64,000 bases of DNA from positions 17,040 through 81,039 of the forward strand of contig PEAN01000001.1 of the NCBI GenBank assembly GCA_002753735.1. Reading direction: 5' to 3'. Below the pieces are notes generated by a model. The model had not been told where the DNA came from. It did no database searches and worked only from the letters and a program-made list of their open reading frames with translations. How positions within the stretch are numbered: the stretch's first letter is position 1; each line of letters starts with the position of its first letter. This DNA comes from Magnetococcales bacterium DCbin4. GTDB lineage: Bacteria > Pseudomonadota > Magnetococcia > Magnetococcales > UBA8363. Positions 4,903 through 47,214 of the stretch are shown piece after piece. Position numbers and translations under genes: made by a program.

Positions 4903-5011
4903 TTCCATTTCTAAACCGCACCCAGTTTGGGATACGTAAATTTATTGAATATCAATACGCCTGAGAAAATCTGCCACTCAAAAATGTCTTTTTGATATGG
5001 AAATGGAGTAA

Positions 5012-5054
5012 GAAAAAAACAGGTCCCGGGGCTATTCCCCAGACCTGTTTTTTC
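5012..5054. terminator. Bidirectional intrinsic terminator between the alr operon (+) and yidC (-)
   Basis: A7-ACAGGTCCCGGGG-ctatt-CCCCAGACCTGT-T6. Hairpin flanked by an A-run and a T-run. The architecture resembles the MITE-like family termini. Confidence 0.7.
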
Positions 5055-5061
5055 TTGATGA

Positions 5062-6711
5062 TTATGATGATTTTTTGACGATATAGCTTTGCTGGATGAT
5101 CGAAAGGACATTGTTGACCAGCCAATACAGGACCAGCCCCGAAGGAAATGTCAGGAACAGGAAGGTGAAGATCACAGGCAGAAACGACATGATTTTCGCC
5201 TGAATCGGATCGGCAGGGGTTGGATTGAGCCTTGATTGTAAATACATCGAGATGCCCATCAACACAGGCAATACGTAAAAGGGATCCTGTGCCGACAAAT
5301 CCTGAATCCAAAGGAAAAACGGGGCGTGGCGCATCTCCACCGACAAAAACAATACCTTGTACAGGGCAAAAAAGACCGGAATCTGTACCACGATGGGGAG
5401 ACATCCCCCCAACGGGTTCACTTTGTTGTCCTGATACAGCTTCATCATCTCCTGGTTCATGCGCGCCTTGTCGTCGGAAAACCGCTTGCGCAACTCTTCC
5501 ACCTTGGGTTGCAACTTTTTCATTTCGTTCATGGAACGATAGCTTTTGTTGGCCAAGGGAAAGAAAATGGCCTTGATCATCACGGTCAACATAATGATCG
5601 CCAAGCCAAAATTGTGCAAAAACGCATTGAAGATCAGCAGCAGTTCAACCAGGGGAACCGCCAAAAAGTGAAACCAGCCATAGTCGATGGAACGTTCCAG
5701 ATCATGTCCGACCCGCTCCAGGGTGTTGATCTCCTTGGGACCGATATAGAGCAGCAGCGTGCGGGAAAACTGACTCTTGGGGGCAATCGTCTGTTTTTCT
5801 GAAACGTTGCCGACCCTGAACGATGGATTGTCAAAGTCGAAATAAAAACGTTTTTTGCTGGCATCGGTCGTGATGAAGGCTGCCAGAAAATATTTGTCGG
5901 AAAATCCCGCCCATCCCGTGACTGCCGATTCGTGCAGGTCATTTTTGCGCACATCTTCGTAGGAATGTTGAATCCGTGCCCCATCCAAAAATCCCATGGG
6001 TCCCTGGAAATCAGCAACCGCCATGGCATTGCTGTCGATGACCGGTTCGACACGGATGAAATGGGAAAAATGATGGACTCCGACCGGGTTGTCGGTGGTG
6101 TTGACGATGCGGTCCTCGACGGTGAACAGATAGGTTTTTTCATCAATGGAAATCAATTTTTCAAACAACAATCCCTGACCATTGTCCCAAAACAGACGCA
6201 TGGAATGGGGTGGGGCGGAGGCATCGGGTTTGGCCAGGTTCCAAACGGTATTGCGGTCGGGCGTTTGAATCTGGGCCCCTAAAAATCCCGATTCGTTGAA
6301 GAAAAAATCGCGTCCATGGCGGTTGAAAAACTGGATGGGTTGCCCTTCGGGAGGCAAATGGGTCAAATGTTTCAAAAATCTCAGGTCGGAAAAAGAAGCC
6401 CCCTTGAGAGAAATCTTCCCTTCGACCAAATCGGTCTTGAATGGGGCGAAAGGTTCATTGGCATTGTCCTGCTGGCCGGGCATCGCTTCGGGCAGCACCG
6501 GTTGCGATTCCATCACGGGGACGGACGTTCCCGCCGCGGGGGAGGACTGTTTTTCCGGCAACGTTTCCTGACCGGACGCCGATGGTTTTTGTTCCACCGG
6601 AGTCGCAGAGATGGCTGTTTCGTCGGGAGGGAAATAAATTTCCATGACCGATTGGTAGGCAACCACCAAGAACAAGGAAAGTATGATGGCCAGGAGGGTT
6701 CTCTGGTCCAT
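5062..6711 (-). CDS. yidC: Membrane protein insertase YidC
   Basis: 549 aa. N-terminal TM, large periplasmic domain, and the conserved C-terminal core (LPIVVQIPVFFALY, GLVLYWLVNNVLSIIQQ). Confidence 0.95.
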   Translation of the reverse strand: MDQRTLLAIILSLFLVVAYQSVMEIYFPPDETAISATPVEQKPSASGQETLPEKQSSPAAGTSVPVMESQPVLPEAMPGQQDNANEPFAPFKTDLVEGKISLKGASFSDLRFLKHLTHLPPEGQPIQFFNRHGRDFFFNESGFLGAQIQTPDRNTVWNLAKPDASAPPHSMRLFWDNGQGLLFEKLISIDEKTYLFTVEDRIVNTTDNPVGVHHFSHFIRVEPVIDSNAMAVADFQGPMGFLDGARIQHSYEDVRKNDLHESAVTGWAGFSDKYFLAAFITTDASKKRFYFDFDNPSFRVGNVSEKQTIAPKSQFSRTLLLYIGPKEINTLERVGHDLERSIDYGWFHFLAVPLVELLLIFNAFLHNFGLAIIMLTVMIKAIFFPLANKSYRSMNEMKKLQPKVEELRKRFSDDKARMNQEMMKLYQDNKVNPLGGCLPIVVQIPVFFALYKVLFLSVEMRHAPFFLWIQDLSAQDPFYVLPVLMGISMYLQSRLNPTPADPIQAKIMSFLPVIFTFLFLTFPSGLVLYWLVNNVLSIIQQSYIVKKSS

Positions 6712-8989: not shown

Positions 8990-9000
8990 ACAAATCATTG

Positions 9001-9168
9001 AAAAAAAAGGGGTCTCAAGGGACTGCCCCCAGGGTTTTGACTTTGGTTTTTAATTTGATTCAGATCAAAAAGAAAAACCTTGGGGGACTTTGTCCCCCAA
9101 ACCCCCTGTGGGGGATGGAAAACCAAAATCAAAACCCTGGGGGCAATCCCTTGAGACCCCTTTTTTTT
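9001..9168. mobile_element. MITE-like inverted-repeat element, copy A (168 bp)
   Basis: A8-GGGGTCTCAAGGGACTGCCCCCAGGGTTTTGACTTTGGTTTT ... AAAACCAAAATCAAAACCCTGGGGGCAATCCCTTGAGACCCC-T8, giving roughly 50-bp terminal inverted repeats. No plausible ORF. Confidence 0.65.
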
Positions 9169-9188
9169 CTTAATAATAGGGAAGGGAC

Positions 9189-13545: not shown

Positions 13546-13730
13546 GTTGGGCATCGTGGTGGGAACCATTGATCTTGACGGTCGTGTTGTGTGTGACCTT
13601 GGTGTTTATTGGTCGTCGGTTATGGCGGCTGTTCTTTTCGGTGCAGGCTTCGGGGTGTGGGTGTGCGGAAAAGTCTTCCTGCCTCAGTTGTGTGCCGGAG
13701 GAGATGATCAAGAAAAAAAAGGGGTCTTAA
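13542..13730 (+). CDS. FeoB-associated Cys-rich small membrane protein
   Basis: 62 aa, with an ATGA overlap with the feoB stop. One TM helix, then GCGCAEKSSCLSC. The last 6 codons and the stop lie inside MITE copy B. Confidence 0.6.
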   Translation: MSWASWWEPLILTVVLCVTLVFIGRRLWRLFFSVQASGCGCAEKSSCLSCVPEEMIKKKKGS

Positions 13731-13852
13731 AGGATTGCCCCCAGGGTTTCGACTTAAAAAACAAAGTCAAAAGCAGCGCATGGAAACCTTTTTGTTTTAA
13801 TTCAAAAACAAAGTCAACACCCTGGGGGCAGTCCCCCAGACCCCTTTTTTTT
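13713..13852. mobile_element. MITE-like inverted-repeat element, copy B (140 bp)
   Basis: Same termini as copy A. The internal core AAAACAAAGTCAAAAGC..GCATGGAAACCTTTTTGTTT is shared with copies D and F. Lies between the convergent feo and arg operons. Confidence 0.65.
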
Positions 13853-13890
13853 CTCAATAATTTCAATGCAAATGGGGTGCTGAACAGTTA

Positions 13891-16502: not shown

Positions 16503-16541
16503 GTTGCGCTCCCGACGGATGAGGGGTGTGACATTATTAAT

Positions 16542-16583
16542 AAAAAAAAGGGGTCTGGGGGCAATCCCTTAAGACCCTTTTTT
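16542..16583. repeat. Collapsed 42-bp member of the MITE-like family (hairpin only), inside the arg operon
   Basis: A8-GGGGTCTGGGGGCAATCCCTTAAGACCC-T6 between the argF stop (16615) and the argG start (16502). Confidence 0.6.
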
Positions 16584-16614
16584 ATTCTTGATCATCATCG
16601 ATATCGACACGATT

Positions 16615-27125: not shown

Positions 27126-27132
27126 GGATCAA

Positions 27133-27261
27133 GAAAAAAAATGGGTCTCAAGGGATTGCCCCCAGGACTTTGATTTTAAATAAAAAGGTTTCCATGCTCC
27201 GCCTTTGACTTTGTTTTTGAAATCACAGTCCTTGGGGTAATCCCTTGAGACCCATTTTTTT
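27133..27261. mobile_element. MITE-like inverted-repeat element, copy D (129 bp), internal core inverted relative to B and F
   Basis: Fills the gap between the convergent uvrD stop (27125) and prfA stop (27266). Family termini present. The internal AAAAAGGTTTCCATGCTC..CTTTGACTTTGTTTTT is the reverse complement of the B/F core. Confidence 0.65.
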
Positions 27262-27265
27262 CTGG

Positions 27266-28366
27266 TCAATTGTTTTCGGCGGGGGCATCGGCAAACGCGG
27301 CAAGCAGCTTTGCCTGATGATCATTGGCCAGGGCGGAAATCACCTCTTCCAAATCGCCTTGCATCACCTGATCCAACCGGTAAATCGTCAGATTGATCCG
27401 ATGATCGGTCAAACGTCCCTGCGGAAAATTGTAGGTACGAATCCGTTCCGACCGATCCCCGCTCCCCACCTGCCCCTTGCGATCACGCGAACGGGCCTCT
27501 TCGGCAGCCTTCAGTTCCATGTCATACAAACGCGCCTTCAAGACCTTCAACGCCTTGGCCTTGTTTTTATGCTGTGATTTTTCATCCTGGCACACGACGA
27601 CCAGCCCCGTCGGCAAATGGGTGATCCGTACCGCCGAATCGGTGGTGTTGACACTCTGTCCCCCCGGTCCCGAGGAACGAAACACATCAATGCGTAAATC
27701 ATCACGCTCATTGATGACCACATCCACCTCTTCCGCCTCGGGCAATACCGCCACCGTACACGCCGAGGTGTGAATCCGTCCCCCCGCCTCGGTGACCGGA
27801 ACCCGCTGCACCCGGTGGACACCCGACTCGAATTTGAGCGATGAAAACACCCCCCTGCCACTCACCATGAGGATGATTTCCTTAAACCCCCCCAAATCGG
27901 TCGCATGGGTGGACAACAATTCCATCCGCCAACCCTGGGATTCGGCAAAACGTTGGTACATGCGCAACATTTCACCCGCAAAGAGGGCTGCCTCTTCCCC
28001 CCCGGTCCCCGCCCGGATTTCCAGAATGGCGTTTTTCTGATCATTGCGATCTTTGGGCAACAACATCAATTGCAATTCCCGCCACGCCTGCTCCCGCCGT
28101 TTCTGCAACAACTCCCGTTCCTCTTTGGCCAGGAGACGTAATTCCTGATCCTCCGCCGATTCCGCCATCAAGGCTTCGGTCGCGGCGATTTCTTCCTCGA
28201 TGGCCTGAAATTCCCTGTAGGCACCCACAACCGGATCCAGACCGGCATATTCGCGGCTGAGGCGGGAATAACGGCCCGAATCGGCCATGACTTCGGCCTG
28301 GGACAAAAGCGCCGCCAATTCGCCATGACGCCGTGTCAGATCATTGAGTTTCGACAAAAAGGACAT
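27266..28366 (-). CDS. prfA: Peptide chain release factor 1
   Basis: SGPGGQSVN (GGQ) and the RF1-type PVT tripeptide in [15 protein letters not shown]. Confidence 0.93.
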
Positions 28367-30378: not shown

Positions 30379-30752
30379 GGTTCATCGATTAGGAAAAGTG
30401 TCCTTGTTCGTTCGCCAAATTTGGCGAGCGTTGTTGGCAGGTCCAGAATACTGTATCCGACCCCGGCCAACCCCGTCCAACAAATTCCGCTTGACCCCTT
30501 TGACTCCCGGGATGGCCAGGAGTGATGATGAGGGCACGGGGTCGAAAATCCCTCAAAGAGCGGATCCGCACCCATCAGACTATTGCGGACTTTTTGTGCC
30601 TGGTTCCGGCATGCGTTCTGCAGGATTGTTGTTGACAAAATGGCGGATGGAAATGGTACACTTTTCAATGGGTAGCGGTTTCTAAAACCGCACCCTTTCC
30701 GGGGCCTGTGGACTTCTGTCCGCAGGCTTCCGCGTTTTTGAAGGATGATGTT

Positions 30753-32153: not shown

Positions 32154-32441
32154 ATGCGTATGCACAATCCACCACATCCGGGTGAAGTGATCCGGGAATT
32201 GTGTCTCGCTCCACTGGGACTTTCAGTGACCAAGGCGGCAGAGGGTTTGGGGGTCACCCGGAAAACGCTTTCCTCTCTTCTGAATGGCCGGTCCGGCATT
32301 TCACCGGAAATGGCGATCCGCCTTTCCAAGTCCTTCGGAGGAAGTCCGGAAAGTTGGTTGTCACAGCAAATGATCTATGATCTTTGGGAAACAGAACACC
32401 GGGTAGGTGAAATCAATGTGACTGTTTTCAATGCTGTTTGA
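32154..32441 (+). CDS. higA: Type II antitoxin HigA (XRE-type HTH)
   Basis: [62 protein letters not shown] is the canonical HigA-family pattern. Confidence 0.85.
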
Positions 32442-32514
32442 TTGGGCTACTCATCCATGGGCCTCTAATGCTTCTGACTCAGGTATCACCGCTTGGACCG
32501 GGCCGCATCCCAAC

Positions 32515-32612
32515 GGTTCTCTGACGAAGTCCCCCAAGGTTCTTCTTTAAATGATTTTGATCGATTACCGAAGCCGAAACCTTGGGGGTAATCCCCCAGA
32601 CCCCTTTTTTTT
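32515..32612. repeat. Degenerate copy E of the MITE-like family (right terminus intact, left terminus decayed)
   Basis: GTCCCCCAAGGTT...AACCTTGGGGGTAATCCCCCAGACCCC-T8. The left outer A-run/GGGGTCT end is missing. Confidence 0.55.
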
Positions 32613-32712
32613 CTTGATCATGAAGTCAATACGCCCTGGTTCGTAAAGCACCGCACCCTTTCATATTTTAAACAACCGCCAATCATCAATCGTATCATTG
32701 CCGCGTAAATCA

Positions 32713-33882
32713 TCATTTTGTTGGAGGCAAACAGTTCGCAGCAATCATTGCTTTCTTTCTGATTGTTCTAAGCGGCTTTTCGATAAAAACAAAAATAAAA
32801 GATAAGGAAAATATAGCGAACACCGCAAATAAAAGGTTCATAAAAGGTTCAAAGTTATATAGCCCGCGAAAACTATAAGCGAGCGGTACATTCAGCAGAT
32901 AAATGGGATATGAAAGATCACCCGCCAGATTGTCAAGATTTCGACCAGAAATGGGGAATTCCAATTTGCTATTAGCCAAATAATAAATAAAAATGCTTGA
33001 AAAACAAAAAAGAACCGTTGAAATAATTCGCGGTTCATCGGTAAGCGATTGATGAGTTCCTACATAGTGCCAATACATTATATTAGATATAATAAAGAAA
33101 AATAAAAGAAAATTTTTAATCTTTTTTCGATAAATTTCCTGCGCCGTGTGGTTTCGTAGAGCAAGAGCCGAACCAAAAAGAAAGAATGGTAAATGGTAAA
33201 GAATTCCTGCCGCATTTGTAACTGGGGAGAAAGCAAGTTCAAAAAATTTGAACATTCCAGCGCTATGAGAGGTAAAAATACTACCCATTAACATCGGCGA
33301 AACAAATACACTTGCAAAATCAATGATTGCCGCAAGAAATATAACACGTATCAACATTGTTAAATTAAGAAATTCACAATAGTTATCCCTAGATCTCCTT
33401 AAAAAAATAACAACAGCGAACATTAGTAAATAAGCACGAAGCTCAACGTCAATCGTCCAAAGAGCAGGATTCCAATCTTTTTCAAAAGCAACGTTTGTAT
33501 TCCGAAAAATCAACAATAAATAAGCCCAAAGAGAACACCAGTAGTTAGCAATCTCGATTAAAAATTGGCGAAATCCATAAACTGAAAATGAGTCGAAGCG
33601 TATTATTTGATAATTTAAAAAGTGGATTTTAACTACAGGCAGGATAGAGAAAAAAACGAGTGTTAGATAATAAGTTGGAAAAATGCGTAATGCCCTATTG
33701 ATCAAGAACCGAGTTGGATTTTTTATTAGAATTTTATTACTGACAACCATATTGGTGACAAAAAATCCGGAAACGACAAAAAATAGAGAGACTCCAAAAA
33801 AACCAGCACCATATTTTCTAAAAATATTTTGATCAGAAACTATGAGCGAAGAAAAATGAAAAGCTGCAACTACCGAAGCCAA
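32713..33882 (-). CDS. Acyltransferase family 3 (membrane O-acyltransferase); the true 5' end is probably upstream, through the G19 tract
   Basis: Polytopic. VSLFFVVSGFF and RALRIFPTYY motifs. Visibly AT-rich compared with its neighbours. The listed TTG start removes the conserved N-terminal helix, which is still encoded in frame upstream. Confidence 0.75.
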   Translation of the reverse strand: MASVVAAFHFSSLIVSDQNIFRKYGAGFFGVSLFFVVSGFFVTNMVVSNKILIKNPTRFLINRALRIFPTYYLTLVFFSILPVVKIHFLNYQIIRFDSFSVYGFRQFLIEIANYWCSLWAYLLLIFRNTNVAFEKDWNPALWTIDVELRAYLLMFAVVIFLRRSRDNYCEFLNLTMLIRVIFLAAIIDFASVFVSPMLMGSIFTSHSAGMFKFFELAFSPVTNAAGILYHLPFFLFGSALALRNHTAQEIYRKKIKNFLLFFFIISNIMYWHYVGTHQSLTDEPRIISTVLFCFSSIFIYYLANSKLEFPISGRNLDNLAGDLSYPIYLLNVPLAYSFRGLYNFEPFMNLLFAVFAIFSLSFIFVFIEKPLRTIRKKAMIAANCLPPTK

Positions 33883-33925
33883 TATGAAGCGTAAAAAACC
33901 AAAACCCTGTATTGAAGACTTATTA

Positions 33926-33944
33926 CCCCCCCCCCCCCCCCCCC
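33926..33944 (-). repeat. Homopolymer: 19 x C on the + strand (G19 on the acyltransferase coding strand)
   Basis: Counted directly: tattaCCCCC CCCCCCCCCC CCCCactt. Confidence 0.95.
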
Positions 33945-34047
33945 ACTTACAACCACAGTTGATGCTTTCGCATCGAATTTTAAATAGTCTTTATCGCTTT
34001 TTAACAAAACGGCGTCCTCCTCTAAGCACTATCAGTCTGCAATAAAT

Positions 34048-34124
34048 TGGGGCGAACGACGGGACTTGAACCCGCGACAACCGGAATCACAATCCGGGGC
34101 TCTACCGACTGAGCTACGTTCGCC
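34048..34124 (-). tRNA. tRNA-His (GTG), with encoded G-1, C73 and CCA
   Basis: GGCGAACGTAGCTCAGTCGGTAGAGCCCCGGATTGTGATTCCGGTTGTCGCGGGTTCAAGTCCCGTCGTTCGCCCCA folds as a cloverleaf with anticodon loop TTGTGAT. Confidence 0.9.
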
Positions 34125-34208
34125 ATGCGAGCGGATCGAGGCGACATCATAACATACCGTGCCCGATCCGATACAGCGTTTGTTACAATGACCAAGGGCA
34201 CCAAAATC

Positions 34209-34285
34209 TGGTGCGCCCGGCAGGATTCGAACCTGCAGCCTACGGCTTAGAAGGCCGTTGCTCTATCCGATTGAGCCACGGGCGC
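34209..34285 (-). tRNA. tRNA-Arg (TCT)
   Basis: GCGCCCGTGGCTCAATCGGATAGAGCAACGGCCTTCTAAGCCGTAGGCTGCAGGTTCGAATCCTGCCGGGCGCACCA. Anticodon loop CTTCTAA. Confidence 0.9.
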
Positions 34286-34349
34286 TGGTGAAACTCTGCC
34301 TGACGTCCCGCGCCTGCCAAGCCATGGGTTGGGCCATGGATCGGGCGAA

Positions 34350-34426
34350 TGGTCGGGGTGAGAGGATTTGAACCTCCGGCCCTCGGCTCCCAAAGCCGAT
34401 GCGCTACCAGACTGCGCTACACCCCG
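34350..34426 (-). tRNA. tRNA-Pro (TGG)
   Basis: CGGGGTGTAGCGCAGTCTGGTAGCGCATCGGCTTTGGGAGCCGAGGGCCGGAGGTTCAAATCCTCTCACCCCGACCA. Anticodon loop TTTGGGA. Confidence 0.9.
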
Positions 34427-34608: not shown

Positions 34609-35127
34609 TCACAGCGTCTTGGGTTGCGCTGCCTCTGCTTTCTTTTCGGCTTCCGGAGTGATCATCATGATGGAAAACGTACCCAGATGATCCCATAAAC
34701 CGCCATCGAGCTGATCATACACCTTGAAAAACCACAGCCCCGGAAAAAATGCTCCCGACAATCCACCCGCAGCGGTATACAAAGGCAGGGTGTCATCCTT
34801 GTTGGCCTGGACCGGGGGGAAATCGAGATCGGTGATTTTGTCACCCTTGTGGTCGATGATGTTGACCTTGAAATGGTGCGATCCGGTACTGGTCAACACG
34901 AGATCGAGAATGAAATACCCCGCCACCCCCTGGGATCGGGGTTGCAACGATTTGACGACCGAGGTCGGTTGCACCGCATCGCCCTGTTCCACCATCTTGT
35001 CGGAAAAATAGGCGTTGCTGATATAAGCGGGTTGACGCAATGAAGCTTTTTCATTGCCAGAAGCCGAAACCATCCAGCCAGCGACCCCAAACCACAAGGT
35101 CAACAGCATCAACGAAAAGGTACGCAT
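34609..35127 (-). CDS. Hypothetical secreted protein (172 aa), translationally coupled to the pyrK-like gene
   Basis: Signal peptide MRTFSLMLLTLWFGVAGWMVSASG. TGATG overlap with the upstream stop. No family recognised. Confidence 0.6.
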   Translation of the reverse strand: MRTFSLMLLTLWFGVAGWMVSASGNEKASLRQPAYISNAYFSDKMVEQGDAVQPTSVVKSLQPRSQGVAGYFILDLVLTSTGSHHFKVNIIDHKGDKITDLDFPPVQANKDDTLPLYTAAGGLSGAFFPGLWFFKVYDQLDGGLWDHLGTFSIMMITPEAEKKAEAAQPKTL

Positions 35128-36053
35128 CAGAGACAGGATCTCCTTTCCCCTTCTTTGTTGCAGCTATTGGTATTCACCTCCGGAATGTGCCACAAAATCT
35201 GATCCAAAGGCAAGACCGGCCCTTCGGTACAACTTCGGACAAAACGCCAATCATCCCCATGGTATACCGGAACCGCGCAACCGGCACAACCGCCAAAACC
35301 ACACGCCATCGTCCCTTCCAGCGAAATTTCTCCCTTCAGCTTCCATTGTTTCGCAAGTTCCGTCACGGCCACCATCATCGCCGTCGGACCACAGACATAA
35401 AGATGCACCGGTCCATCCGCACCCCTGGTCCCTTCAAGGACCTGATGCAACAGATCGCTCACCCAACCATGGAAAAAGCCTGGTTTCTTTGTGATCGAGG
35501 CCAACCGGGTGACGATCCCCCGTTGTTCCTCCCGCGCCAGCGCCAAAGGGGATTCAATCACCCCCCCCGGCAGCCCGATCCGTGCTGGAACCGTTGCAAA
35601 AGGGACCGTTTCCGCTTCCAATCCCCACAACAGGGTCACCCCGATCCCCCGCTGCCGCAATCGATCCGCCCAAAAACGCAAGGGGGCCAATCCCACCCCT
35701 CCCGCCACCAACACCGCCCGGCATCCCTCCGGTGGTTCGGTAAAGGAAGATCCCAAAGGCCCCAAAACCCATGGTTGATCGCCGGGACGCCATTGTTCCA
35801 TGTACCCCGTTCCCACCCCCACCACTTTGTAAAAAACTTCCACCATGCCCGTTTCGGGGTCGGTGTTCATGATTGAAAAAGGACGTGGCAACGTCAAGGA
35901 AGGGTGGCAATCCATTTGGAGAAACTGTCCCGGCCGGGCTTGCCTGGCAATCGCCGGGGCGTCAAGCGTCAATCCATGCATGCGACCGCCCAGGGGACGG
36001 TTTTCATGGACTCGGACGCGAATTCGTCGTGGAGGATTGGGGCGTGTTGACAT
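35127..36053 (-). CDS. pyrK: Dihydroorotate dehydrogenase electron-transfer subunit-like flavoprotein (PyrK family, FAD/NAD + 2Fe-2S)
   Basis: RPFSI FAD motif, GGVGLAP, and the C-terminal cluster CGFGGCAGC...C. Confidence 0.75.
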   Translation of the reverse strand: MSTRPNPPRRIRVRVHENRPLGGRMHGLTLDAPAIARQARPGQFLQMDCHPSLTLPRPFSIMNTDPETGMVEVFYKVVGVGTGYMEQWRPGDQPWVLGPLGSSFTEPPEGCRAVLVAGGVGLAPLRFWADRLRQRGIGVTLLWGLEAETVPFATVPARIGLPGGVIESPLALAREEQRGIVTRLASITKKPGFFHGWVSDLLHQVLEGTRGADGPVHLYVCGPTAMMVAVTELAKQWKLKGEISLEGTMACGFGGCAGCAVPVYHGDDWRFVRSCTEGPVLPLDQILWHIPEVNTNSCNKEGERRSCL

Positions 36054-36072
36054 TCGGAAAAATTATTAAAAG

Positions 36073-36249
36073 AAAAAAGGGGTCTGGGGGATTGCCCCCA
36101 GGGTTTTGACTTTAAAAAAGCTCCAATTTTTGCTTTTGATTTTGTTTTCACCTTGAAAACAAAGTCAAAAGCTTGAGCATGGAAACCTTTTTGTTTAAAT
36201 TCAAAAATAAAATCAACACCCCGGGGGCAATCCCCCAGACCCCTTTTTT
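36073..36249. mobile_element. MITE-like inverted-repeat element, copy F (177 bp, the longest)
   Basis: A6-GGGGTCTGGGGGATTGCCCCCAGGGTTTTGACTTT ... AATCAACACCCCGGGGGCAATCCCCCAGACCCC-T6. Lies between pyrC and pyrK on the same strand. Confidence 0.65.
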
Positions 36250-36286
36250 CTTTCACTATAAAGGGCGTGCCGAACAGTTGATTATA

Positions 36287-39564: not shown

Positions 39565-39741
39565 GCATTCCACAGGGTTGTTGCGAATTGGCAACACGGT
39601 GTTGCAAATGAGCATGAGCATTGGTCGGGATCGGGCACGGTGGCCGAGCTGATTTTGGATGCAGACCCATTGATTCAATTGTTGTCACAAACGAAGTTTC
39701 CGGGGCTTCCGGGAGCGGGTTTTCAAACTAAGGAGAGAAGT

Positions 39742-41115
39742 ATGAAGAAGACACTGATTCTTGGTGCGGCCGCGTTGGCCGCCGCTGCCTGGGCTCCCCT
39801 GGCCGATGCTGGTGAAGTCAAACTGGGTGGCTACTACATGGGCCGCTGGCAGATGTATGACTCCAACATGATCGATGAAGTGGCTCCTGCCGACACCGGC
39901 GAGCGTTATGTTCATCGTCTCCAACTGAAAACCGACATGATCGCCTCGGAAAAGAGCCATGCCCACATGGTGGTCCGGGTTCTTGATACCGCAGTGATCG
40001 AAGGTTCCGACCTCGGTTCCGTCTCCTCCGATACCGGAGCGGCGGGCGGCGTTTCCGACACCCAGGTTTCCAATGTGGCCAACCTGGCTGATCCCTGGGA
40101 AATCCGGCAAATGTGGTTGGAAACCGAAGCCTGGGGCATCGGTTTGAAATTTGGTGAAATGCCCATCACCCTCAACGACAAGATCCTCGTCGGTGAAGAT
40201 ACCTCTTCCCATGGTGGATTGTTGCTCTCCAAAACCTTCGGCAATGTGACCGCCGTTGTGGGCAACATTCGTATCAATGAAGACATGAGCACCGGCAGCT
40301 CGATCAATGATCTGACCGCAGCGGGTGCCGCCACCAAGGGTGCCGACAGCGACGACGCCAATCTGTGGGCCATGAGCCTGTTCGGAAAAGCGGGTCTGGC
40401 GGACTATAACTTCACCCTGGCCTATGCCGACCTCCAGGAAGCTTCCGATTTCATGGATGTCCTGGAAACCGTCTGCGGTGCGACCACCCCCTGCACCACC
40501 ACCGACGCCAGCAACATTTGGGCAGCTTTGACCCTGAGCGGCAAACTGGGTTATGTCAACGCCGTCGGTACCATCATTTATGAAGATGGCTATGATTTGT
40601 CCCAGGACACCACCGGTTCCAAGATTTCCAACATGTGGTCCAGCTCCGGACTCCTCGGTGCCCTTCGTCTGAGCGGTAGCCTCAGCTTTGGTGAATGGAA
40701 CGCCTACGGGTTTGTCGCTTCCGAAGACTTCAACAACATCACCAACGACAACATGGTGTGGTCGGCAACCTGGGATCAAAGCGGACCGGGCGGTATCGAC
40801 CTGATGAACACCTTCGCCAACGGCGCAGGGACCAACACCTCCCCCAGCGAAAACATGACGGGTATTGGTGTGGGCCTCAAAGTCAAGGCAGCGGGTTGGA
40901 CCATCAACCCCATGATCGACTATGCCGAAGTGACCGAATCGCAAGCGGGTGGCACTTGGGACTCTGCGGTTGGCGGCAGCTTGCTGCTTTCCACCCAGAT
41001 CCAGAAAGACACCACGCTGTTGCTTGAAACGGCGTTGGTCAATCCCGAAGGGATCAACAGGACCAATGAAGATAATGCCTTCTATGCCCAAGCTGGCATC
41101 AAGATGGCCTTCTGA
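39742..41115 (+). CDS. Putative outer-membrane porin (beta-barrel), paralogue 1
   Basis: Start reset to MKKTLILGAAALAAAAWAPLADA (AAGGAGAG Shine-Dalgarno). Alternating amphipathic strands. C-terminal ...AGIKMAF ends in an aromatic residue. No specific family recognised. Confidence 0.6.
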   Translation: MKKTLILGAAALAAAAWAPLADAGEVKLGGYYMGRWQMYDSNMIDEVAPADTGERYVHRLQLKTDMIASEKSHAHMVVRVLDTAVIEGSDLGSVSSDTGAAGGVSDTQVSNVANLADPWEIRQMWLETEAWGIGLKFGEMPITLNDKILVGEDTSSHGGLLLSKTFGNVTAVVGNIRINEDMSTGSSINDLTAAGAATKGADSDDANLWAMSLFGKAGLADYNFTLAYADLQEASDFMDVLETVCGATTPCTTTDASNIWAALTLSGKLGYVNAVGTIIYEDGYDLSQDTTGSKISNMWSSSGLLGALRLSGSLSFGEWNAYGFVASEDFNNITNDNMVWSATWDQSGPGGIDLMNTFANGAGTNTSPSENMTGIGVGLKVKAAGWTINPMIDYAEVTESQAGGTWDSAVGGSLLLSTQIQKDTTLLLETALVNPEGINRTNEDNAFYAQAGIKMAF

Positions 41116-41675: not shown

Positions 41676-43031
41676 ATGAAAAAATCGTTGATTCTTGGTT
41701 TGGCTGCGGTTGCCGCTGCGTGGACTTCTTATGCCGATGCAGGTGAAGTCAAGTTGGGAGGTCAATACATGGGCCGTTGGCAAATGTATGACGCCAACAT
41801 GATTGATGAAGTCGCTCCATCGGATCGGGGTGAGGCTTATGTCCACGAATTGATGTTGAGCACCGACATGATCGCTTCGGAAAAAAGCCATGCGCACATG
41901 CGGGTCCAGGTGCTTGATTCAGCGGTGATCGAAGGTGCTGATCTGGGTTCGGTTTCTTCCGATACCGGTGCGGCCGGTGGGGTATCGAACACCCAGGTTT
42001 CCAATGTCGTCAACCTGGCCGATCCCTGGGAAATCCGGCAAATGTGGTTGGAAACCGAAGCATGGGGCATTGGCGTCAAATTTGGTGAAATGCCCATCAC
42101 CCTTAATGACACCATCCTGGTGGGTGATGACCTTTCTTCCAATGGTGGCCTGTTGCTCTCCAAAACCTTTGGCAACGTGACTGCCGTGGTGGGCAACATT
42201 CGCATCAACGAAGACATGTCCACGGGGGCGTCCTCGGGTAATGATGCGGGCAAGGGTGCCGATAGCGACGACGCCAATTTGTGGGCCATGAGCCTGTTCG
42301 GCAAGGCGGGTCTGGCTGATTACAATTTCACCCTGGCTTATGCCGATCTTCAAGAAGCTTCCGATTTCATGGAAGTGTTGGAAACCGTCTGCGGTGCGAC
42401 GACGCCCTGTGCCACCACTGATGGCAGCAATATTTGGGCTGCTTTGACCTTGAGTGGCAAGCTGGGTTATGTCAATGCGGTGGGTACGGTGATCTATGAG
42501 GATGGCTATGACCTGTCGCAGGACACGACCGGTTCCAAGATTTCCAATCTGTGGTCCAGCTCTGGAATTTTGGGTGCGTTGCGTTTGAATGGCAGCACCG
42601 GATTTGGCGAATGGAATGCCTACGGTTTTGTCGCCTCTGAAGATTTCAACAATATCACCAACGACAACATGGTGTGGTCGGCGACCTGGGACCAAGGCGG
42701 CCCCAATGGAATCGATCTGATGAACAACTTTGCCGTTGGCGCAGGCACCAACACCTCTCCCAGCGAAAATATGACGGGTATTGGTGTGGGCCTCAAAGTC
42801 AAAGCGGCGGGTTGGACCATCAATCCCATGATCGACTATGCGGAAGTGACGGAAGCCCAAGCGGGTGGTACCTGGGATTCCGCGACGGGTGGCAGCCTGC
42901 TCCTCTCTACCGATATCCAAAAAGACACCACGCTCTCTTTGGAAGCGGCAGTGGTCAGCCCGGAGGGGATCAATCGGACCAACGAAGACAACGCCTTCTA
43001 TGCTCAGGCGGGGATCAAGATGATTTTCTGA
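41676..43031 (+). CDS. Putative outer-membrane porin, paralogue 2
   Basis: 451 aa, clearly more than 80% identical to paralogue 1 by eye. Signal peptide. C-terminal ...AGIKMIF. Confidence 0.6.
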   Translation: MKKSLILGLAAVAAAWTSYADAGEVKLGGQYMGRWQMYDANMIDEVAPSDRGEAYVHELMLSTDMIASEKSHAHMRVQVLDSAVIEGADLGSVSSDTGAAGGVSNTQVSNVVNLADPWEIRQMWLETEAWGIGVKFGEMPITLNDTILVGDDLSSNGGLLLSKTFGNVTAVVGNIRINEDMSTGASSGNDAGKGADSDDANLWAMSLFGKAGLADYNFTLAYADLQEASDFMEVLETVCGATTPCATTDGSNIWAALTLSGKLGYVNAVGTVIYEDGYDLSQDTTGSKISNLWSSSGILGALRLNGSTGFGEWNAYGFVASEDFNNITNDNMVWSATWDQGGPNGIDLMNNFAVGAGTNTSPSENMTGIGVGLKVKAAGWTINPMIDYAEVTEAQAGGTWDSATGGSLLLSTDIQKDTTLSLEAAVVSPEGINRTNEDNAFYAQAGIKMIF

Positions 43032-43108: not shown

Positions 43109-44113
43109 TCATCCCTGGTGCGAAAAAACATCGTCCAACGATTGGGCGTCAAAAATTTTGAGACTCCATACCTCCAAAGCGGAAGATTCCGCTTGGATGA
43201 TTTTTTTTTCGACCCACTCCGGTACCGGACCAAAGCGACGTTGCAACAGACGGAGCAGTATTTTGGCTTCGCCTTTTTTTTCACCCATCTGCTCGCCCTC
43301 TTTCCGACCTTCCTCCCGACCTTCCTCCCGACCTTCCTCCCGACCTTCCTTCCAACCTTCCTCCCGACCTTCCAGTTTTCCAAGGCCATAGTTTGATTGC
43401 ACCAGGCTGGCCTGATGATGGAGGTCATCCTTGTATCGTTCGTAGGCCCGTCGTTCCGGTTCAGACAGTTTCAATATATCAAGCTGTTCTTTGGCTTTGA
43501 CCAGACCACGGGCGGTGGATCCTTCACGAATTTCCTCGTTTTTCAAAAAATAAATCCATTCATCCAGGGAATCTCGCGCCACATCGTTAAAGCGATTCAC
43601 CTTGATCAAATAATATTCCGGGAAGAGTTCTGGCACCGAGTTGCGATGAAACAACGCCTTTTGTCCTTCACTGAGCGTCAATTCATCGTTTGTATGCAAT
43701 CCTTTGAATGTGGTCGTTCCCTTGTAGACATAATCGGCGCCCTGTCCCAGGTCGAAATACATGATGTTGACGGAAATCACTTTGAGGATGCTGGAATAAG
43801 GTTCATGTTCATTGATATGTTCGGTAATCGCTTTGGCGGTTCCATATAAAAGACGTTGCAGATAGTCCCATTCGCGTTGATATTGCAATTCGATGAGGAT
43901 CAATTCCCCACGCATGTTTTTTACCTTGATGTCCACCCGGTTGTATTTGTCGAGCCTGTCATCCTTGTTGCCTTCACTTTCCAGGATTTCTTGAATACGA
44001 AGATCTTCCTTGAGCAGTTCGCTCAGGAATCCTTCCAAAATTTCAAAGTTTGCCTTGCTGCGCAAAAGACGTTTCAAGGCCCAATCAAAGCTGATCAACC
44101 GGCGTTGTTTCAT
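43109..44113 (-). CDS. Rpn-family recombination-promoting nuclease / putative transposase (PD-(D/E)XK), with a GREE-repeat linker
   Basis: N-terminus ISFDWALKRLLRSKANFEILEGFL...RVDIKVKN..ELILIELQ (D..E.Q core). C-terminal LLRLLQRRFGPVPEWVEKKI helix, typical of this family. Confidence 0.65.
   Translation of the reverse strand: MKQRRLISFDWALKRLLRSKANFEILEGFLSELLKEDLRIQEILESEGNKDDRLDKYNRVDIKVKNMRGELILIELQYQREWDYLQRLLYGTAKAITEHINEHEPYSSILKVISVNIMYFDLGQGADYVYKGTTTFKGLHTNDELTLSEGQKALFHRNSVPELFPEYYLIKVNRFNDVARDSLDEWIYFLKNEEIREGSTARGLVKAKEQLDILKLSEPERRAYERYKDDLHHQASLVQSNYGLGKLEGREEGWKEGREEGREEGREEGRKEGEQMGEKKGEAKILLRLLQRRFGPVPEWVEKKIIQAESSALEVWSLKIFDAQSLDDVFSHQG
43306..43375 (-). repeat. 12-bp coding tandem repeat (GACCTTCCTCCC on the + strand), about 5.8 units
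   Basis: Units at 43306, 43318 and 43330 are perfect. The units at 43342, 43354 and 43366 are degenerate. Encodes EGREEGREEGREEG in the Rpn-like protein. Confidence 0.9.
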
Positions 44114-44200: not shown

Positions 44201-45052
44201 TCAATGTTTCAGAGCATCTCGAGATTTTCGTTCCATGAGATCAAGGATTTCCTGTAACGTCTGCGGAAGGGATTCCCCCACACCCAGCCAACCCAGGCAA
44301 CGTGCCTTCAAGGCCAATTGCAAAAGCATCGGTGGATTCAAATGGGCTCGGCTCAAGGCTTCATCATCCGCCAAAATTTTTTCACTGGGTCCTTTGGCGA
44401 CGACCTTGCCCTCATTGAACAAAGCCACCTCATCCGCAATCGAATAGGCAAGATCGACATCATGGGTGGTGAATACCAGTGTTGTTCCTGCTTCGGAGAT
44501 CTTGCGCAATACCGCAAGCAGATGCGCTGAAGCATGATGATCAAGACCGGAGGTGGGCTCATCCAACAATAACACTTCGGGACGCATGGCAACGATTCCG
44601 GCGATGGCAACACGTTTTTTCTGACCGCCGGAAAGCATGTGAGTCGGACGATCCGCCAAATCGGCAATATTCATGATGCGCAACGCTTCGATCACCCGTT
44701 CCTTGGTTTCAATGTCACCGAGGCCCATGTTCAAAGGGCCAAAGGAGACATCTTCAAATACCGACGCAGCAAACAGTTGATCATCCGCATCCTGTAATGC
44801 CAGTCCCACACGTCTGCGCCATGCAGTCAGTGCACGACGGGAATATCCCACGGGTTGGCCATCCAGAAACACTTGTCCCGAAGAGGGACGCAGCGTGCCA
44901 TTGAGATGCATGAGCAGTGTGGTCTTGCCCGAGCCATTGGGCCCCAGAATGGCCAGTTTACGGCCACGTTTGATGGACAGGTTCAATCCAGAAAGTGCCG
45001 GAACACCCCCGGGAAACGTATAGGTCAGGGCGTCTGCCTTGAGGATCGTCAT
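44201..45052 (-). CDS. cbiO: Cobalt/ECF transporter ATP-binding protein CbiO
   Basis: Walker A GPNGSGKTT, LSGGQKKRVAIA, LLLDEPTSGLD. Confidence 0.88.
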   Translation of the reverse strand: MTILKADALTYTFPGGVPALSGLNLSIKRGRKLAILGPNGSGKTTLLMHLNGTLRPSSGQVFLDGQPVGYSRRALTAWRRRVGLALQDADDQLFAASVFEDVSFGPLNMGLGDIETKERVIEALRIMNIADLADRPTHMLSGGQKKRVAIAGIVAMRPEVLLLDEPTSGLDHHASAHLLAVLRKISEAGTTLVFTTHDVDLAYSIADEVALFNEGKVVAKGPSEKILADDEALSRAHLNPPMLLQLALKARCLGWLGVGESLPQTLQEILDLMERKSRDALKH

Positions 45053-45780
45053 GAAAAATGAACTCCTGCGGCAGCGATGACGAGTTCAATGACGATGACC
45101 AGAATCAGGGTGGGAATCGAAAGAGGGACCGTCCGTGACAATACCCGCATGTTTCCGGTCCAGCCCCGTGCCGCCAGTCCCACTTCCAACCGACGCCCCT
45201 GATCCATGGCACGCGGCAACAGATTGGCGACCAACAATCCCAGGGAACGCAACTGCTGCCATTTGCTCGAATGGCCAAGACGGGACGCCTGTGCACGACT
45301 CATGGAGCGAGAAGTATCCGCCAGGAGGAAAATAAATCGGTACATCAATAATGCAATTTCGACGATTTCCGGAGGAACCCCTGAACGGCGCAATCCGGCA
45401 AGCAGGTCTGTCGTCGGCGTGGTCAGTGCGAGAAACAAAAAACAGGCAAACCCAGCCAAGGCCCGGGTCATCATGTTCCCTGCAATGAACAAACCCTCCG
45501 GAGCCAGGGAAACCCCGGAAGAATCAATCTGAATCGCCAAAAACATGGCACCTGTGAACAGAAATCCCACAGGTCCAATGATGCAGGCCAGCCATACGCG
45601 CACTGGAATGCCAGCCCCGAACAAGGTCGCCGCCATCGTGACCATCAACACGATCACCGCCACCGGATAGGGTGGAAAGACGACCGACAACAACAACATC
45701 CCCAGGGCAAAAACAACCTTCTCGGTGAGGGAACGATGACGCCAACGGTTGCAGTGTGCAACACGATCAATCGCCGTCAT
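45049..45780 (-). CDS. cbiQ: Cobalt ECF transporter transmembrane component CbiQ
   Basis: Polytopic 243 aa, overlapping cbiO and cbiN. Position in the cbiMNQO cluster. Confidence 0.8.
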   Translation of the reverse strand: MTAIDRVAHCNRWRHRSLTEKVVFALGMLLLSVVFPPYPVAVIVLMVTMAATLFGAGIPVRVWLACIIGPVGFLFTGAMFLAIQIDSSGVSLAPEGLFIAGNMMTRALAGFACFLFLALTTPTTDLLAGLRRSGVPPEIVEIALLMYRFIFLLADTSRSMSRAQASRLGHSSKWQQLRSLGLLVANLLPRAMDQGRRLEVGLAARGWTGNMRVLSRTVPLSIPTLILVIVIELVIAAAGVHFS

Positions 45781-46066
45781 GATCGTTACGCTTCAGTGAT
45801 GATCCGTGCCGACGTCCAATGACGTAACCGACAAACCCAGCGCCCAAGGCCGCCTGTATGGCAAACAACATGCTTTCCACTTCGCCACTTGGTGGCGTCC
45901 ACAAGGGTTGAAACCATGGCTGATAGCCGGGACGGGCTTGGATGATCATCTCCACGGCTTGACCGTCGGTACCTTCAAAATCACCTTGAAAAACGGGAAT
46001 GGCCAATGGCAGGAACATGAGTATTGCTGCCGCAACCATCAACCACAGTGAGCGATGGCGATTCAT
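45767..46066 (-). CDS. cbiN: Cobalt transport protein CbiN
   Basis: 99 aa with two TM segments. [32 protein letters not shown] pattern. Confidence 0.8.
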
Positions 46067-46734
46067 CGGTGGACCTCACCACACAATGCCTCAATTTCAT
46101 CGACTTTACCGGCACGACCCGACAAAGCGTTCATGACGACCACGGTCAGCAACCCTTCGACGATGGCCAGGGGAATCTGGGTAAACGCAAAGACACCACC
46201 AAATTTGATGATGGCACCAGGGATTCCCGATGATACATCCGGGTATGCCAGTGCCAACTGCACCGATGTGGTCATATAGGTTGATAAATTGCCCAGTGTT
46301 GCTGCAAGGAATACCGCAATCGCAATGGATGCCCCCAATCTGCTGGCCAAACGCCACACCCCCCAACTGACCCAGGGACCGACAATGGCCATTGAGAATA
46401 CGTTGGCACCCAGGGTTGTAAGTCCGCCGTGGGCAAGCAGAAGCGCTTGAAACAACAACACGATCATTCCGAGAACCGACATGACTGCCGGTCCGAATAC
46501 CACCGCACCCAGACCGGTGCCGGTGGGATGGGAACAGGAACCGGTGACACTGGGCATTTTAAGTGCCGAAAGCATGAAGGTGAAGGCACCTGCGGCTGCC
46601 AGCATCATTTTCGCCTGGGGCCGTTCCCGAACAATGCGTTTTGCGCGAATGACCCCGGCGACAACAAACGGCGCGGAGATGCCAAGCCACCCGATGGCAT
46701 GCTCAATGGGAAGAAATCCCTCCATGATATGCAT
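46063..46734 (-). CDS. cbiM: Cobalt transporter substrate component CbiM
   Basis: Start reset to MHIMEGFLP (ATG 46734, GGAGAAG 6 nt upstream), the conserved CbiM N-terminus. Confidence 0.88.
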
Positions 46735-46899
46735 GTACTCTTCTCCCGGGTACGAAAACAACAAAGGTCAAAATGTCTCCGATCATTCGGCAAGAGACAA
46801 ACTCATGACCACAGCAAGAATAGGGAGGGGAAGGGGGGCGAAAGAACGAAGGGGCGAAGCGTAAGCGGTGGGTCTGCCGGGCGCATCACCCCGGCGCTC

Positions 46900-47085
46900 G
46901 CCCGCACTGCCCTCCGCAGTGCGCACAGGCCATTCCCTGGGCCGGTCTCCGGGCTTACGCAATCAGGCTCCCAACATTGAAGAACCTTTCATGCGCCTAC
47001 CGTTGCGGGGGCAGCACCGGAATCGCCAAGGATTGGCTGACCGGATTTCCCGTTTCAGTTCAAAGGAAGACAACCTTTGGAACAC
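46900..47085 (-). promoter_or_regulatory. Cobalamin (B12) riboswitch in the cbiMNQO leader
   Basis: The minus strand reads ...AACGGGAAATCCGGT..ATTCCGGTGCTGCCCCCGCAACGGTAGG...GGGAGCC...AAGCCCGGAGACCGGCC. This matches the conserved GGGAA/CCGGTG/GCTGCCCCCGCAACTGTA core and the B12 box (AGYCMGGAGACCKGCC). Confidence 0.8.
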
Positions 47086-47214
47086 CCAGAAAGGGATGGT
47101 CAATCCTATGAGATTCCGGGAGAATTTGTCAACCCATATTTTTACATTTTCCAAGCAACATGATCAAACTTCGCTTGGAATGCGAGGGATGCTCCCGAGG
47201 GTTTGATCTTGATT

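Follow-up and report, generated by a model that had tools for sequence, protein, structure and literature searches.

A probable MITE family with terminator-shaped cargo and IS701-type movement in Magnetococcales

Several intergenic spaces in the 64,000-nt stretch of Magnetococcales bacterium DCbin4 analysed here (contig PEAN01000001.1, positions 17,040 to 81,039; the whole stretch is called the window) carry the same kind of long palindrome, which opens with an A-run and GGGGTCT and closes with a T-run. The question that these repeats raise is what they are and how they came to lie where they do. An earlier note, made from the letters of the window, had listed six of them, all of which are present as it stated; with a seventh found since, they are called here copies A to G (Table 1), and copy F is the one from which the analysis set out. 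They probably belong to a family of non-autonomous transposons (MITEs, short for miniature inverted-repeat transposable elements) that is specific to Magnetococcales, moves in the manner of IS701 elements and carries a terminator-shaped cargo. The features that mark bacterial MITEs are found together in the family: its members are small and non-coding, have inverted repeats and are dispersed in many copies, and a target duplication, filled and empty versions of the same sites and partner elements with the same termini have been identified.

Insertion sites and termini

The earlier note had argued for mobility rather than a conserved operator. Its argument is borne out by the dispersal of the family, by differing occupancy of orthologous sites, by a TTAA-flanked insertion at the level of strains, and by a class of partner elements with the same termini. 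The species of the window is known from at least seven assemblies and a JGI metagenome (3300003895) that match it at 99.6-100% identity, and it is among these that an insertion can be read base by base. In L183 (GCA_015229035.1), a 493-bp member of the family at 12776-13268 is nested in the left arm of copy B, and the ArgH-FeoB spacer is 496 bp longer there than in L182 (GCA_015234015.1) and in the window. The target is the TTAA at window positions 13727-13730. It is single in the empty site of L182 and the window, CCTTTAAGACCCC, and is duplicated on both sides of the insertion in the filled one, CCT(TTAA)TTCTACTTTGTCAGATTCATTAA ... TTAATGAATGTGACAAAGTAGAA(TTAA)GACCCC, where the parentheses mark the two copies. 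Four further assemblies have the same left junction, and the site is filled in all five of the near-identical assemblies L183-L187. The nested element has 23-nt terminal inverted repeats, its termini reading TTCTACTTTGTCA(G/C)ATTCAT, and contains the A-run/GGGGTCTGGGGGATTGCCCCCAGG arms of the family.

Occupancy varies among species as well as among strains. An element is present in nWRX3bin6 where the orthologous site of C5_bin.1 is empty; nWRX3bin6 in turn is empty between two abutting genes (L060) where DCbin2 has one or more elements, and the occupancy of these two bins is reversed at one convergent gene pair. At the OTC stop codon, the window has the collapsed copy C, nWRX3bin6 (L044) has a full arm with an outer module that we call gamma, and Magnetococcus sp. 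YQC-9 (L098) has no element; the site is filled in two genera, an apparently old insertion. Target-site duplications are read as TTAA/TTAA in L183 and L371 and as CTAG/CTAG in L019.

The termini of the nested element lead to its probable source of movement. The 20-nt terminus has at least 120 occurrences in metagenome contigs and at least 78 in genome contigs; as TTCTACYTTGTCASATTCAT, it bounds in many places elements of 1479-1543 bp with open reading frames (ORFs) of 402-447 amino acids (aa). These ORFs score 346 bits against NF033540, 'IS701 family transposase' (cut-off 150), and match PF13546, DDE_5, with E=1e-57; the scores are those of the metagenome partner elements, not of any Magnetococcales copy. 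Hosts of the terminus are mostly Gammaproteobacteria, including Competibacter, Contendobacter, Thiodictyon, Methylococcaceae and Parabeggiatoa. Identical 4-bp flanks stand on the two sides of 12 of the 26 elements for which both termini were available, from 113-bp MITEs to full-length elements. YTAR makes up 128 of 176 distinct flanks (73%, against 1.6% by chance), as TTAA in 65, CTAA in 32, TTAG in 23 and CTAG in 8. Members of the IS701 family measure 1400-1550 bp, have ends of the form ---YACT-Y--YR and duplicate exactly 4 bp (De Palmenaer et al. 2008, PMC2266710); TTCTACTTTGTCA fits that consensus at each specified position in the nested copy and in the copies of the bins nHA5abin3 and HA3dbin1. 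Because the termini of the nested element match complete IS701-type insertion sequences, the A-run and T-run, which the earlier note had taken for the ends of the element, have to be regarded as parts of a palindromic cargo inside it; its true termini are situated further outward and, in the copies of the window, are decayed or of a second type. Members of the family would insert by DDE transposition of the cut-or-copy kind, targeting YTAR sites and duplicating 4 bp, as seen for the nested member in copy B, and the enzyme would be an IS701-family transposase acting in trans from a full insertion sequence with the same termini.

Identical 20-nt ends are thus found on full insertion sequences in metagenomes and gammaproteobacterial bins, while in Magnetococcales the partner is represented by its end only. 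The two Magnetococcales bins that bear the terminus do so differently: nHA5abin3 has MITEs joining it to the A-run/GGGGTCT cargo of the family, and in HA3dbin1, 121 nt from the end of an insertion sequence recur at a minimum of 12 contig ends. This insertion-sequence end reads TTCTACTTTGTCACATTCATTAACCAGATG and encodes EVVRQLEERHRKRQISIDLAYIKQRVTQESASG*, 58% identical to the C-terminus of an IS701 transposase (E=4e-8), which points to a matching IS701-type insertion sequence within the order Magnetococcales. The second type of end, gamma, has an ACATTC..TAAT block in common with the IS701-type ends, from which it differs in its outermost bases; its flanks are CTAG in 9 and TTAG in 6 of 38 cases, and one full copy has CTAG/CTAG. 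No autonomous copy was found among repeat pairs up to 3 kb apart, where two pairs about 1 kb apart were spurious; an all-against-all blastn of the loci for multi-copy coding DNA returned orthologous regions only, and a plasmid collection gave only distant Bradyrhizobium 'IS701 family transposase' matches. Two terminus-like matches, at L029 1792 and L085 5387, were set aside, having no adjoining transposase ORF.

The copies also change in place. Between strains that are about 99.7% identical, substitutions concentrate within elements A and D (window compared with L183 and L180). One arm of copy D is converted to the family consensus in L180 (CCCTTGAGACCCA to CCCCCAGACCCC), and one arm of copy A is converted in L183 (CAAGGG to GGGGG), where copy A also gains a 12-bp unit, AAAACCAAAGTC. 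These differences look like gene conversion and slippage among copies and, as far as sequence comparison can tell, copies do exchange sequence through gene conversion. At least one subfamily is currently active. The seven copies of the window would be older insertions, with termini that are decayed or of the gamma type, and two of them have collapsed to bare hairpins.

Copies, modules and distribution

Within the window, the 22-nt repeat core GGGAYTGCCCCCAGGGTTTTGA has seven matches with up to three mismatches, against 0.00 expected, and AAAAAGGGGTCT has eleven with up to one mismatch, against 0.43 expected; the latter mark every end of all copies, with the sole exception of the decayed left end of copy E. 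An nhmmer profile of 107 ends added the collapsed copy G. By repeat search, the arms of A, B, D and F are 42-55 nt long and 76-96% complementary; whole elements measure 42-250 nt in the window and 88-509 nt elsewhere. The core that the earlier note saw in both B and F was recovered (13747-13859 against 36146-36258, 81%), as was its inverted form in D (13714-13806 against 27169-27261, 82% complementary). The note's further statement that the element exists in two orientations holds in so far as the core does occur inverted; it means merely that a near-symmetric element was inserted either way round. Its terminal inverted repeats of roughly 45-50 bp are likewise real, though the conserved inverted repeat reaches about 20 nt beyond the A-run (ATKATYRAG-A6-8). 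We agree with it that no copy encodes a plausible protein, the sole ORFs being the repeat itself translated, and that a stop codon is no more than 40 nt away from five of its six copies (11 nt for A, 38 for B, 31 for C, 7 and 4 for D, 37 for F); copy E, at 73 and 100 nt, is the exception. The note had recognised no named family, and a literature search likewise gave no published name or description. Rfam gave no gathering-level match on any copy, and its sub-threshold matches are generic long hairpins (plant miRNA precursors; WsnRNA46 at 44.8 against a threshold of 65.3 bits).

Table 1. Copies of the element in the window and modules of copy F. Gene context was assigned by Pfam; arrowheads give gene direction.
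Feature	Coordinates	Strand	Details
Copy F	36040..36285 (earlier note: 36073-36249)	.	PyrK-like start (36053) on one side, dihydroorotase stop (36287) on the other, both genes on - strand; modules in next seven lines
F, outer gamma terminus	36041-36055		GGCGTGTTGACATTC
F, outer module and A-run	36062-36078		ATTATTAAAAG + A-run
F, left repeat body	36079-36114		GGGGTCTGGGGGATTGCCCCCAGGGTTTTGA
F, palindromic core	36115-36207		
F, right repeat	36208-36243		
F, T-run and outer module	36244-36261		
F, alpha/beta-type module	36267-36279		reverse complement of AACTGTTCGGCAC
Copy A	8990..9177	.	type II secretion protein F stop (8989) > A > glycosyltransferase start (9189), same direction
Copy B	13704..13889	.	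FeoB region > B < ArgH stop (13891), convergent; outer alpha module 13877-13889
Copy C	16520..16613	.	ArgG start (16502) < C < OTC stop (16615)
Copy D	27127..27274	.	UvrD stop (27125) > D < release-factor stop (27266), convergent; core opposite to B and F
Copy E	32515..32621	.	right arm intact (nhmmer E=7e-13); left arm reduced to inner part GTCCCCCAAGGTT
Copy G (new)	5003..5062	.	collapsed: A7, CAGGTCCCGGGGCTATTCCCCAGACCTG, T6, CTTGATGAT; nhmmer E=1.2e-4

In 96 arms from other genomes, aligned by anchoring on GGGGTCT, conservation spans from about -20 (AAAATTATTAAAAGAAAAAA) to about +36 relative to the anchor. Conservation is as high in the A- and T-runs as in the GC core, about 1.7 bits, and the 36-nt arm core is nearly invariant in other Magnetococcales bins. 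Each arm includes a small GC palindrome, CTGGGGGATTGCCCCCAG, and the AT-rich core between the arms holds 12-nt repeats of the AAAGTCAAAA type. Outside the conserved arm there may be an optional beta/alpha module, AATTTGCTGACACCCCC or AACCGTTCAGCCCCCC; the outermost module is gamma, GGGCGTGTTGACATTCGAT, usually with TA(G/A) next outward. A family member would accordingly be pictured as short transposase-recognised termini enclosing a long, nearly perfect palindromic cargo, in which the outer module ATTATTAAAAG, the A-run, the GC-rich arm GGGGTCTGGGGGATTGCCCCCAGGGTTTTGA and the AT-rich core are followed by a mirror image closing with the T-run. That the palindrome is a separable cargo follows from the existence of body-less elements with the same termini: mini-MITEs of 88-106 bp in nHA5abin3 (L371 4901-5006; L322 438-525) consist of two IS701-type ends and linkers without the GC/A-run palindrome, the one in L371 having a perfect TTAA/TTAA duplication. 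GC palindromes with GGGGTC(C/T)(A/G)GGGGGAT..ATCCCCC and without A/T runs were also noticed at L098 1296-1345, L077 about 1790-1830 and L061 about 400-440, the example from YQC-9 reading GGGGTCCAGGGGGATTATCCCCCTGG; the cargo arm may be related to them or derive from them.

The copies of the window differ in their state of preservation. Copy F (nhmmer E=1.9e-20 and 1.6e-16), with gamma as an extra outer module at its left, is 84-86% identical across about 200 nt to copies in DCbin2 and nWRX3bin6, and the JGI contig of the same species terminates exactly at 36072. The 51-nt arms of copy A are 96% complementary and carry a complementary CAAGGG/CCCTTG variant; its core is unlike that of the other copies, with two additional hairpins and a repeat-like fragment at 9062-9109 that the nhmmer profile also detects. 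The arms of copy D carry a complementary TGGGTCT/AGACCCA variant. Copy C is a collapsed 42-nt hairpin at 16542-16583 (A8, GGGGTCTGGGGG, CAAT, CCCTTAAGACCC, T6), bordered on both sides by degenerate gamma modules (16523-16535 and about 16597-16613). Copy G lies where a small ORF converges with the YidC stop codon (5062), and a gamma-like motif is close by, at 4948-4961. Copy E is situated in the strain-variable island described below.

Gene callers place ORFs inside the elements, among them a 133-aa ORF in the nested MITE and a 62-aa ORF running into copy B; the calls that overlap elements are 12620-13021 and 13269-13457 in L183 and 13452-13730 and 35127-36053 in the window. For the PyrK-like gene, the called start, ATGTCAACACGCCCC, is nothing but copy F's gamma module. 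Such starts and ORFs are probably annotation artefacts.

Outside the window species, the family is dispersed across at least six other Magnetococcales genome bins. At least 97 genome-contig stretches match a loosened repeat pattern, and all 80 of those listed belong to Magnetococcales bins (DCbin2, nWRX3bin6, Magnetococcus sp. DMHC-6, nHA5abin3 and C5_bin.1). A strict 32-nt pattern had no match in the genome contigs, which means that the source genome of the window is not in that collection; no copy of the family was found in viral contigs. In 44 of 131 exact repeat matches, the element runs off the end of its contig, pointing into the gap, as high-copy repeats do in short-read assemblies. Copies B and F match copies in other bins at 84-92% identity, where orthologous proteins are just 77-84% identical. 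The ArgG closest to that of the window in the genome-contig collection is from Magnetococcus sp. YQC-9 (80%); as a probe for relatives, ArgG proved too conserved and was dropped, giving this one Magnetococcales locus and 79 irrelevant ones.

Predicted termination and competing explanations

As RNA, each full copy is predicted to form a single long hairpin, whichever strand is transcribed, with energies of -63 to -118 kcal/mol and z scores of -10 to -20 against shuffles (F, -97 and -103 kcal/mol with z about -16; A, -112 and -118; D, -74 and -63). In the minimum-free-energy structure of every full copy, the GC-rich base of the stem directly adjoins U6-8 on both strands, and the collapsed copies C and G retain just A-run, stem and T-run. 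In prediction, then, the elements have the GC-rich stem, the U-tract and the position after a stop codon that mark an intrinsic terminator. By a rough count, the family supplies about 7 of about 12 strong terminator-like hairpins in the window; the others, about five, are at 30701, 41147, 43057, 53907 and 58315. The transcript of an inserted copy would fold so that the stem abuts the U-run whichever strand is read, and, downstream of genes, copies would serve as two-way Rho-independent terminators. Judged from folding and position, such bidirectional termination has about an even chance of being real; it would explain why copies persist at 3' ends and why their decay leaves exactly A-run, stem and T-run. 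A further proposal, that an IS701-type transposon acquired a portable two-way terminator and spread it through Magnetococcales, its ends decaying while selection keeps the A-run, stem and T-run, is offered tentatively and is the more doubtful part; if true, intrinsic terminators in these genomes descend in large part from the element.

It may also be that the MITE family is functionally neutral, the hairpin being the mere shape of an inverted repeat and the positions at gene ends those left after selection removed the others, with no useful termination. This is a serious contender, somewhat short of an even chance. Copies A, C and F lie between same-direction, probably co-transcribed genes, as does an insertion in DCbin2, there between overlapping genes, and such sites argue against a strong terminator because it would be polar. 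The preference for 3' ends is modest and was derived from crude ORF calls: 86 element sides face the 3' end of a gene and 56 a 5' end, and of the 19 elements with both neighbours, 7 are convergent, 11 tandem and 1 divergent, the background figures being 74, 255 and 69. The long-range stem moreover competes with local arm hairpins, which leave a 5-nt ACCCC spacer before the U-run. Against neutrality stand the predicted stem placed directly against U6-8 on both strands of every full copy, the decayed copies C and G with exactly the terminator-like minimum, A/T runs conserved like the GC core, and an OTC-stop site that is filled in two genera. Private compensatory changes in the arms were looked for as a sign of selection and were not convincing, because shared variants recur in other copies. 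No sigma-70-like promoter was called reading out of or into the element ends; on manual inspection, the TTGACA in gamma has no properly spaced -10 box.

The placement between same-direction genes, the modest bias and the lack of called promoters count against the reading of the family as IS701-type MITEs with a terminator-shaped cargo, and so do several results on its ends. The target duplications of the seven window copies are unreadable, and none of these copies has the TTCTAC terminus. In copies F and C, the gamma end (GGCGTGTTGACAT) is at odds with the IS701 consensus, and no autonomous element with gamma ends came to light. Two IS701 transposases, used as tblastn queries against about 850 kb of Magnetococcales DNA, detected no IS701 transposase gene; the interior of the HA3dbin1 insertion sequence is not in its bin, all 12 matches being contig ends, and a padded 42-aa query of its C-terminus found no protein in the protein database. 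One possibility is that the gamma-ended and decayed copies were moved by a transposase of another kind, for example of the IS5 family, and that those with IS701-type termini are a separate chimeric subfamily sharing the cargo. IS5-family elements have 4-bp YTAR-like targets and GG...TGTTGA-type ends. Gamma, as GGCGTGTTGACATTC, departs from ---YACT-Y--YR and aligns with the TTCTAC terminus at only about 14 of 23 positions, and the window has no copy with TTCTAC ends. We nevertheless consider this explanation unlikely: the same cargo, outer module and sub-terminal ACATTC..TAAT block stand behind both types of end, YTAR-type tetranucleotides flank both, and the published IS701 end consensus does not cover all three terminal-repeat clusters of that family (De Palmenaer et al., PMC2266710).

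Two other explanations would do without an IS701-type transposon, and both are highly improbable. If the elements were REP- or REPIN-like palindromes spread by a RAYT (Y1, IS200/IS605-like), the two inverted arms would be the doublet, and the palindrome CTGGGGGATTGCCCCCAG in each arm as well as the intergenic, high-copy doublets forming long hairpins would be in keeping with this. The 4-bp target duplication and the DDE-type insertion-sequence termini are not; the arms begin with an A-run and GGGGTCT, without a GTAG or CGTC head, and are 55-100 nt rather than 20-40 nt long, and no RAYT gene was noticed beside any copy, although no systematic RAYT search was made. Non-mobile sequences, either ordinary terminators of the host or a conserved operator, multiplied locally through duplication or gene conversion, would have the terminator-like shape, the conversion patches between copies and the OTC-stop site filled in two genera on their side. 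They are hard to reconcile with near-identical copies that number in the hundreds and stand in unrelated contexts across at least six bins, with filled and empty sites that vary among genomes, or with one insertion that has a clean TTAA duplication and insertion-sequence termini.

Neighbouring features, related systems and significance

The island that holds copy E, 32432-34045, varies among strains and directly adjoins three tRNA genes (34051-34426, - strand). Its slot is occupied by an acyltransferase gene and copy E in the window, by a YafQ-toxin region in L180 and by a KAP NTPase gene in L179, and it looks like a tRNA-adjacent integration hotspot. At about 33925-33945, a G/C homopolymer is about 19 long in the window and 14 in L178, with small changes adjoining; the difference comes either from a variable tract or from an error in sequencing or assembly. 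Another short repeat, TAAACCGCACCC-N6-GGGAT(A/G)CGTA, forms a small imperfect hairpin right after stop codons at window 4912-4938 and at 1258-1290, 9772-9800 and 9800-9830 of the YQC-9 locus L098, and possibly represents a REP-like family. At 39640-41115 and 41676-43031 stand two paralogous genes in tandem, each of about 450-490 aa and together showing about 81% DNA identity; both have signal-peptide-like starts (MKKTLILGAAALAAA) and no Pfam match on record. The 12-nt tandem repeat CCTTCCTCCCGA occurs about 8 times at 43284-43379, within a 334-aa ORF on the - strand. Upstream of the cbiM-cbiN-cbiQ-ABC cobalt transport genes (about 44201-46764), a cobalamin riboswitch scoring 70 bits is found at 46923-47104, on the - strand.

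Among known systems, the Correia elements of Neisseria (CREE/NEMIS) are MITEs with long inverted repeats that form hairpins in mRNA and are abundant near genes. They measure 100-160 bp and have repeats of 26 bp, a TA duplication and an IHF site; no partner is known for them, and effects on transcription and termination have been reported for them. The present family differs in its 4-bp YTAR duplication and its symmetric arms of 55-100 nt, and no outward sigma-70 promoter was seen in it. REPs are 20-40 nt long, have a GTAG or CGTC head, make no target duplication and depend on a Y1 transposase, whereas the family has DDE-type ends and a 4-bp duplication. What it shares with REP, BIME and REPIN sequences (PMC2817692, PMC3116915, PMC3733652) is the high copy number of extragenic GC-rich palindromes, their inverted pairs at gene ends and the proposed roles in termination and mRNA stability. 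A promoter role of Correia elements has been described (PMC3184786). SPRITE (2011, listed in PMC3184786) is also a dispersed intergenic repeat of about 100-200 nt with a predicted RNA resembling a Rho-independent terminator. It belongs to an unrelated organism and has no known sequence relationship to the family, which is symmetric, terminator-like both ways and of identifiable transposon origin. To our knowledge, no transposase partner is known for SPRITE. Neither with SPRITE nor with Correia elements does the family have sequence or duplication type in common. The closest likeness is to the IS701 insertion sequences and their MITE derivatives (PMC2266710), with which the family has the end consensus, the exact 4-bp duplication and autonomous relatives of 1.48-1.54 kb scoring against NF033540 in common; it differs from them in having no transposase, in the 130-400-nt palindromic, terminator-shaped cargo between its ends, and in that most copies, including those of the window, have gamma ends or none recognisable.

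The family itself is new, and its kind, a MITE with IS701-type ends, is already known; what sets it apart is a cargo shaped like a terminator, ends built of modules and an insertion caught in the act. It explains why Magnetococcales bins fragment at the same sequence, and it flags small ORFs and start codons within the repeats as spurious. For uncultured magnetotactic cocci it offers a strain-typing marker, because at least one subfamily is currently active. Should the hairpin indeed terminate transcription, the family would offer a clear example of a transposon that spreads ready-made bidirectional terminators, whose decay products are kept at orthologous gene ends, and would bear on the origin of bacterial terminators.

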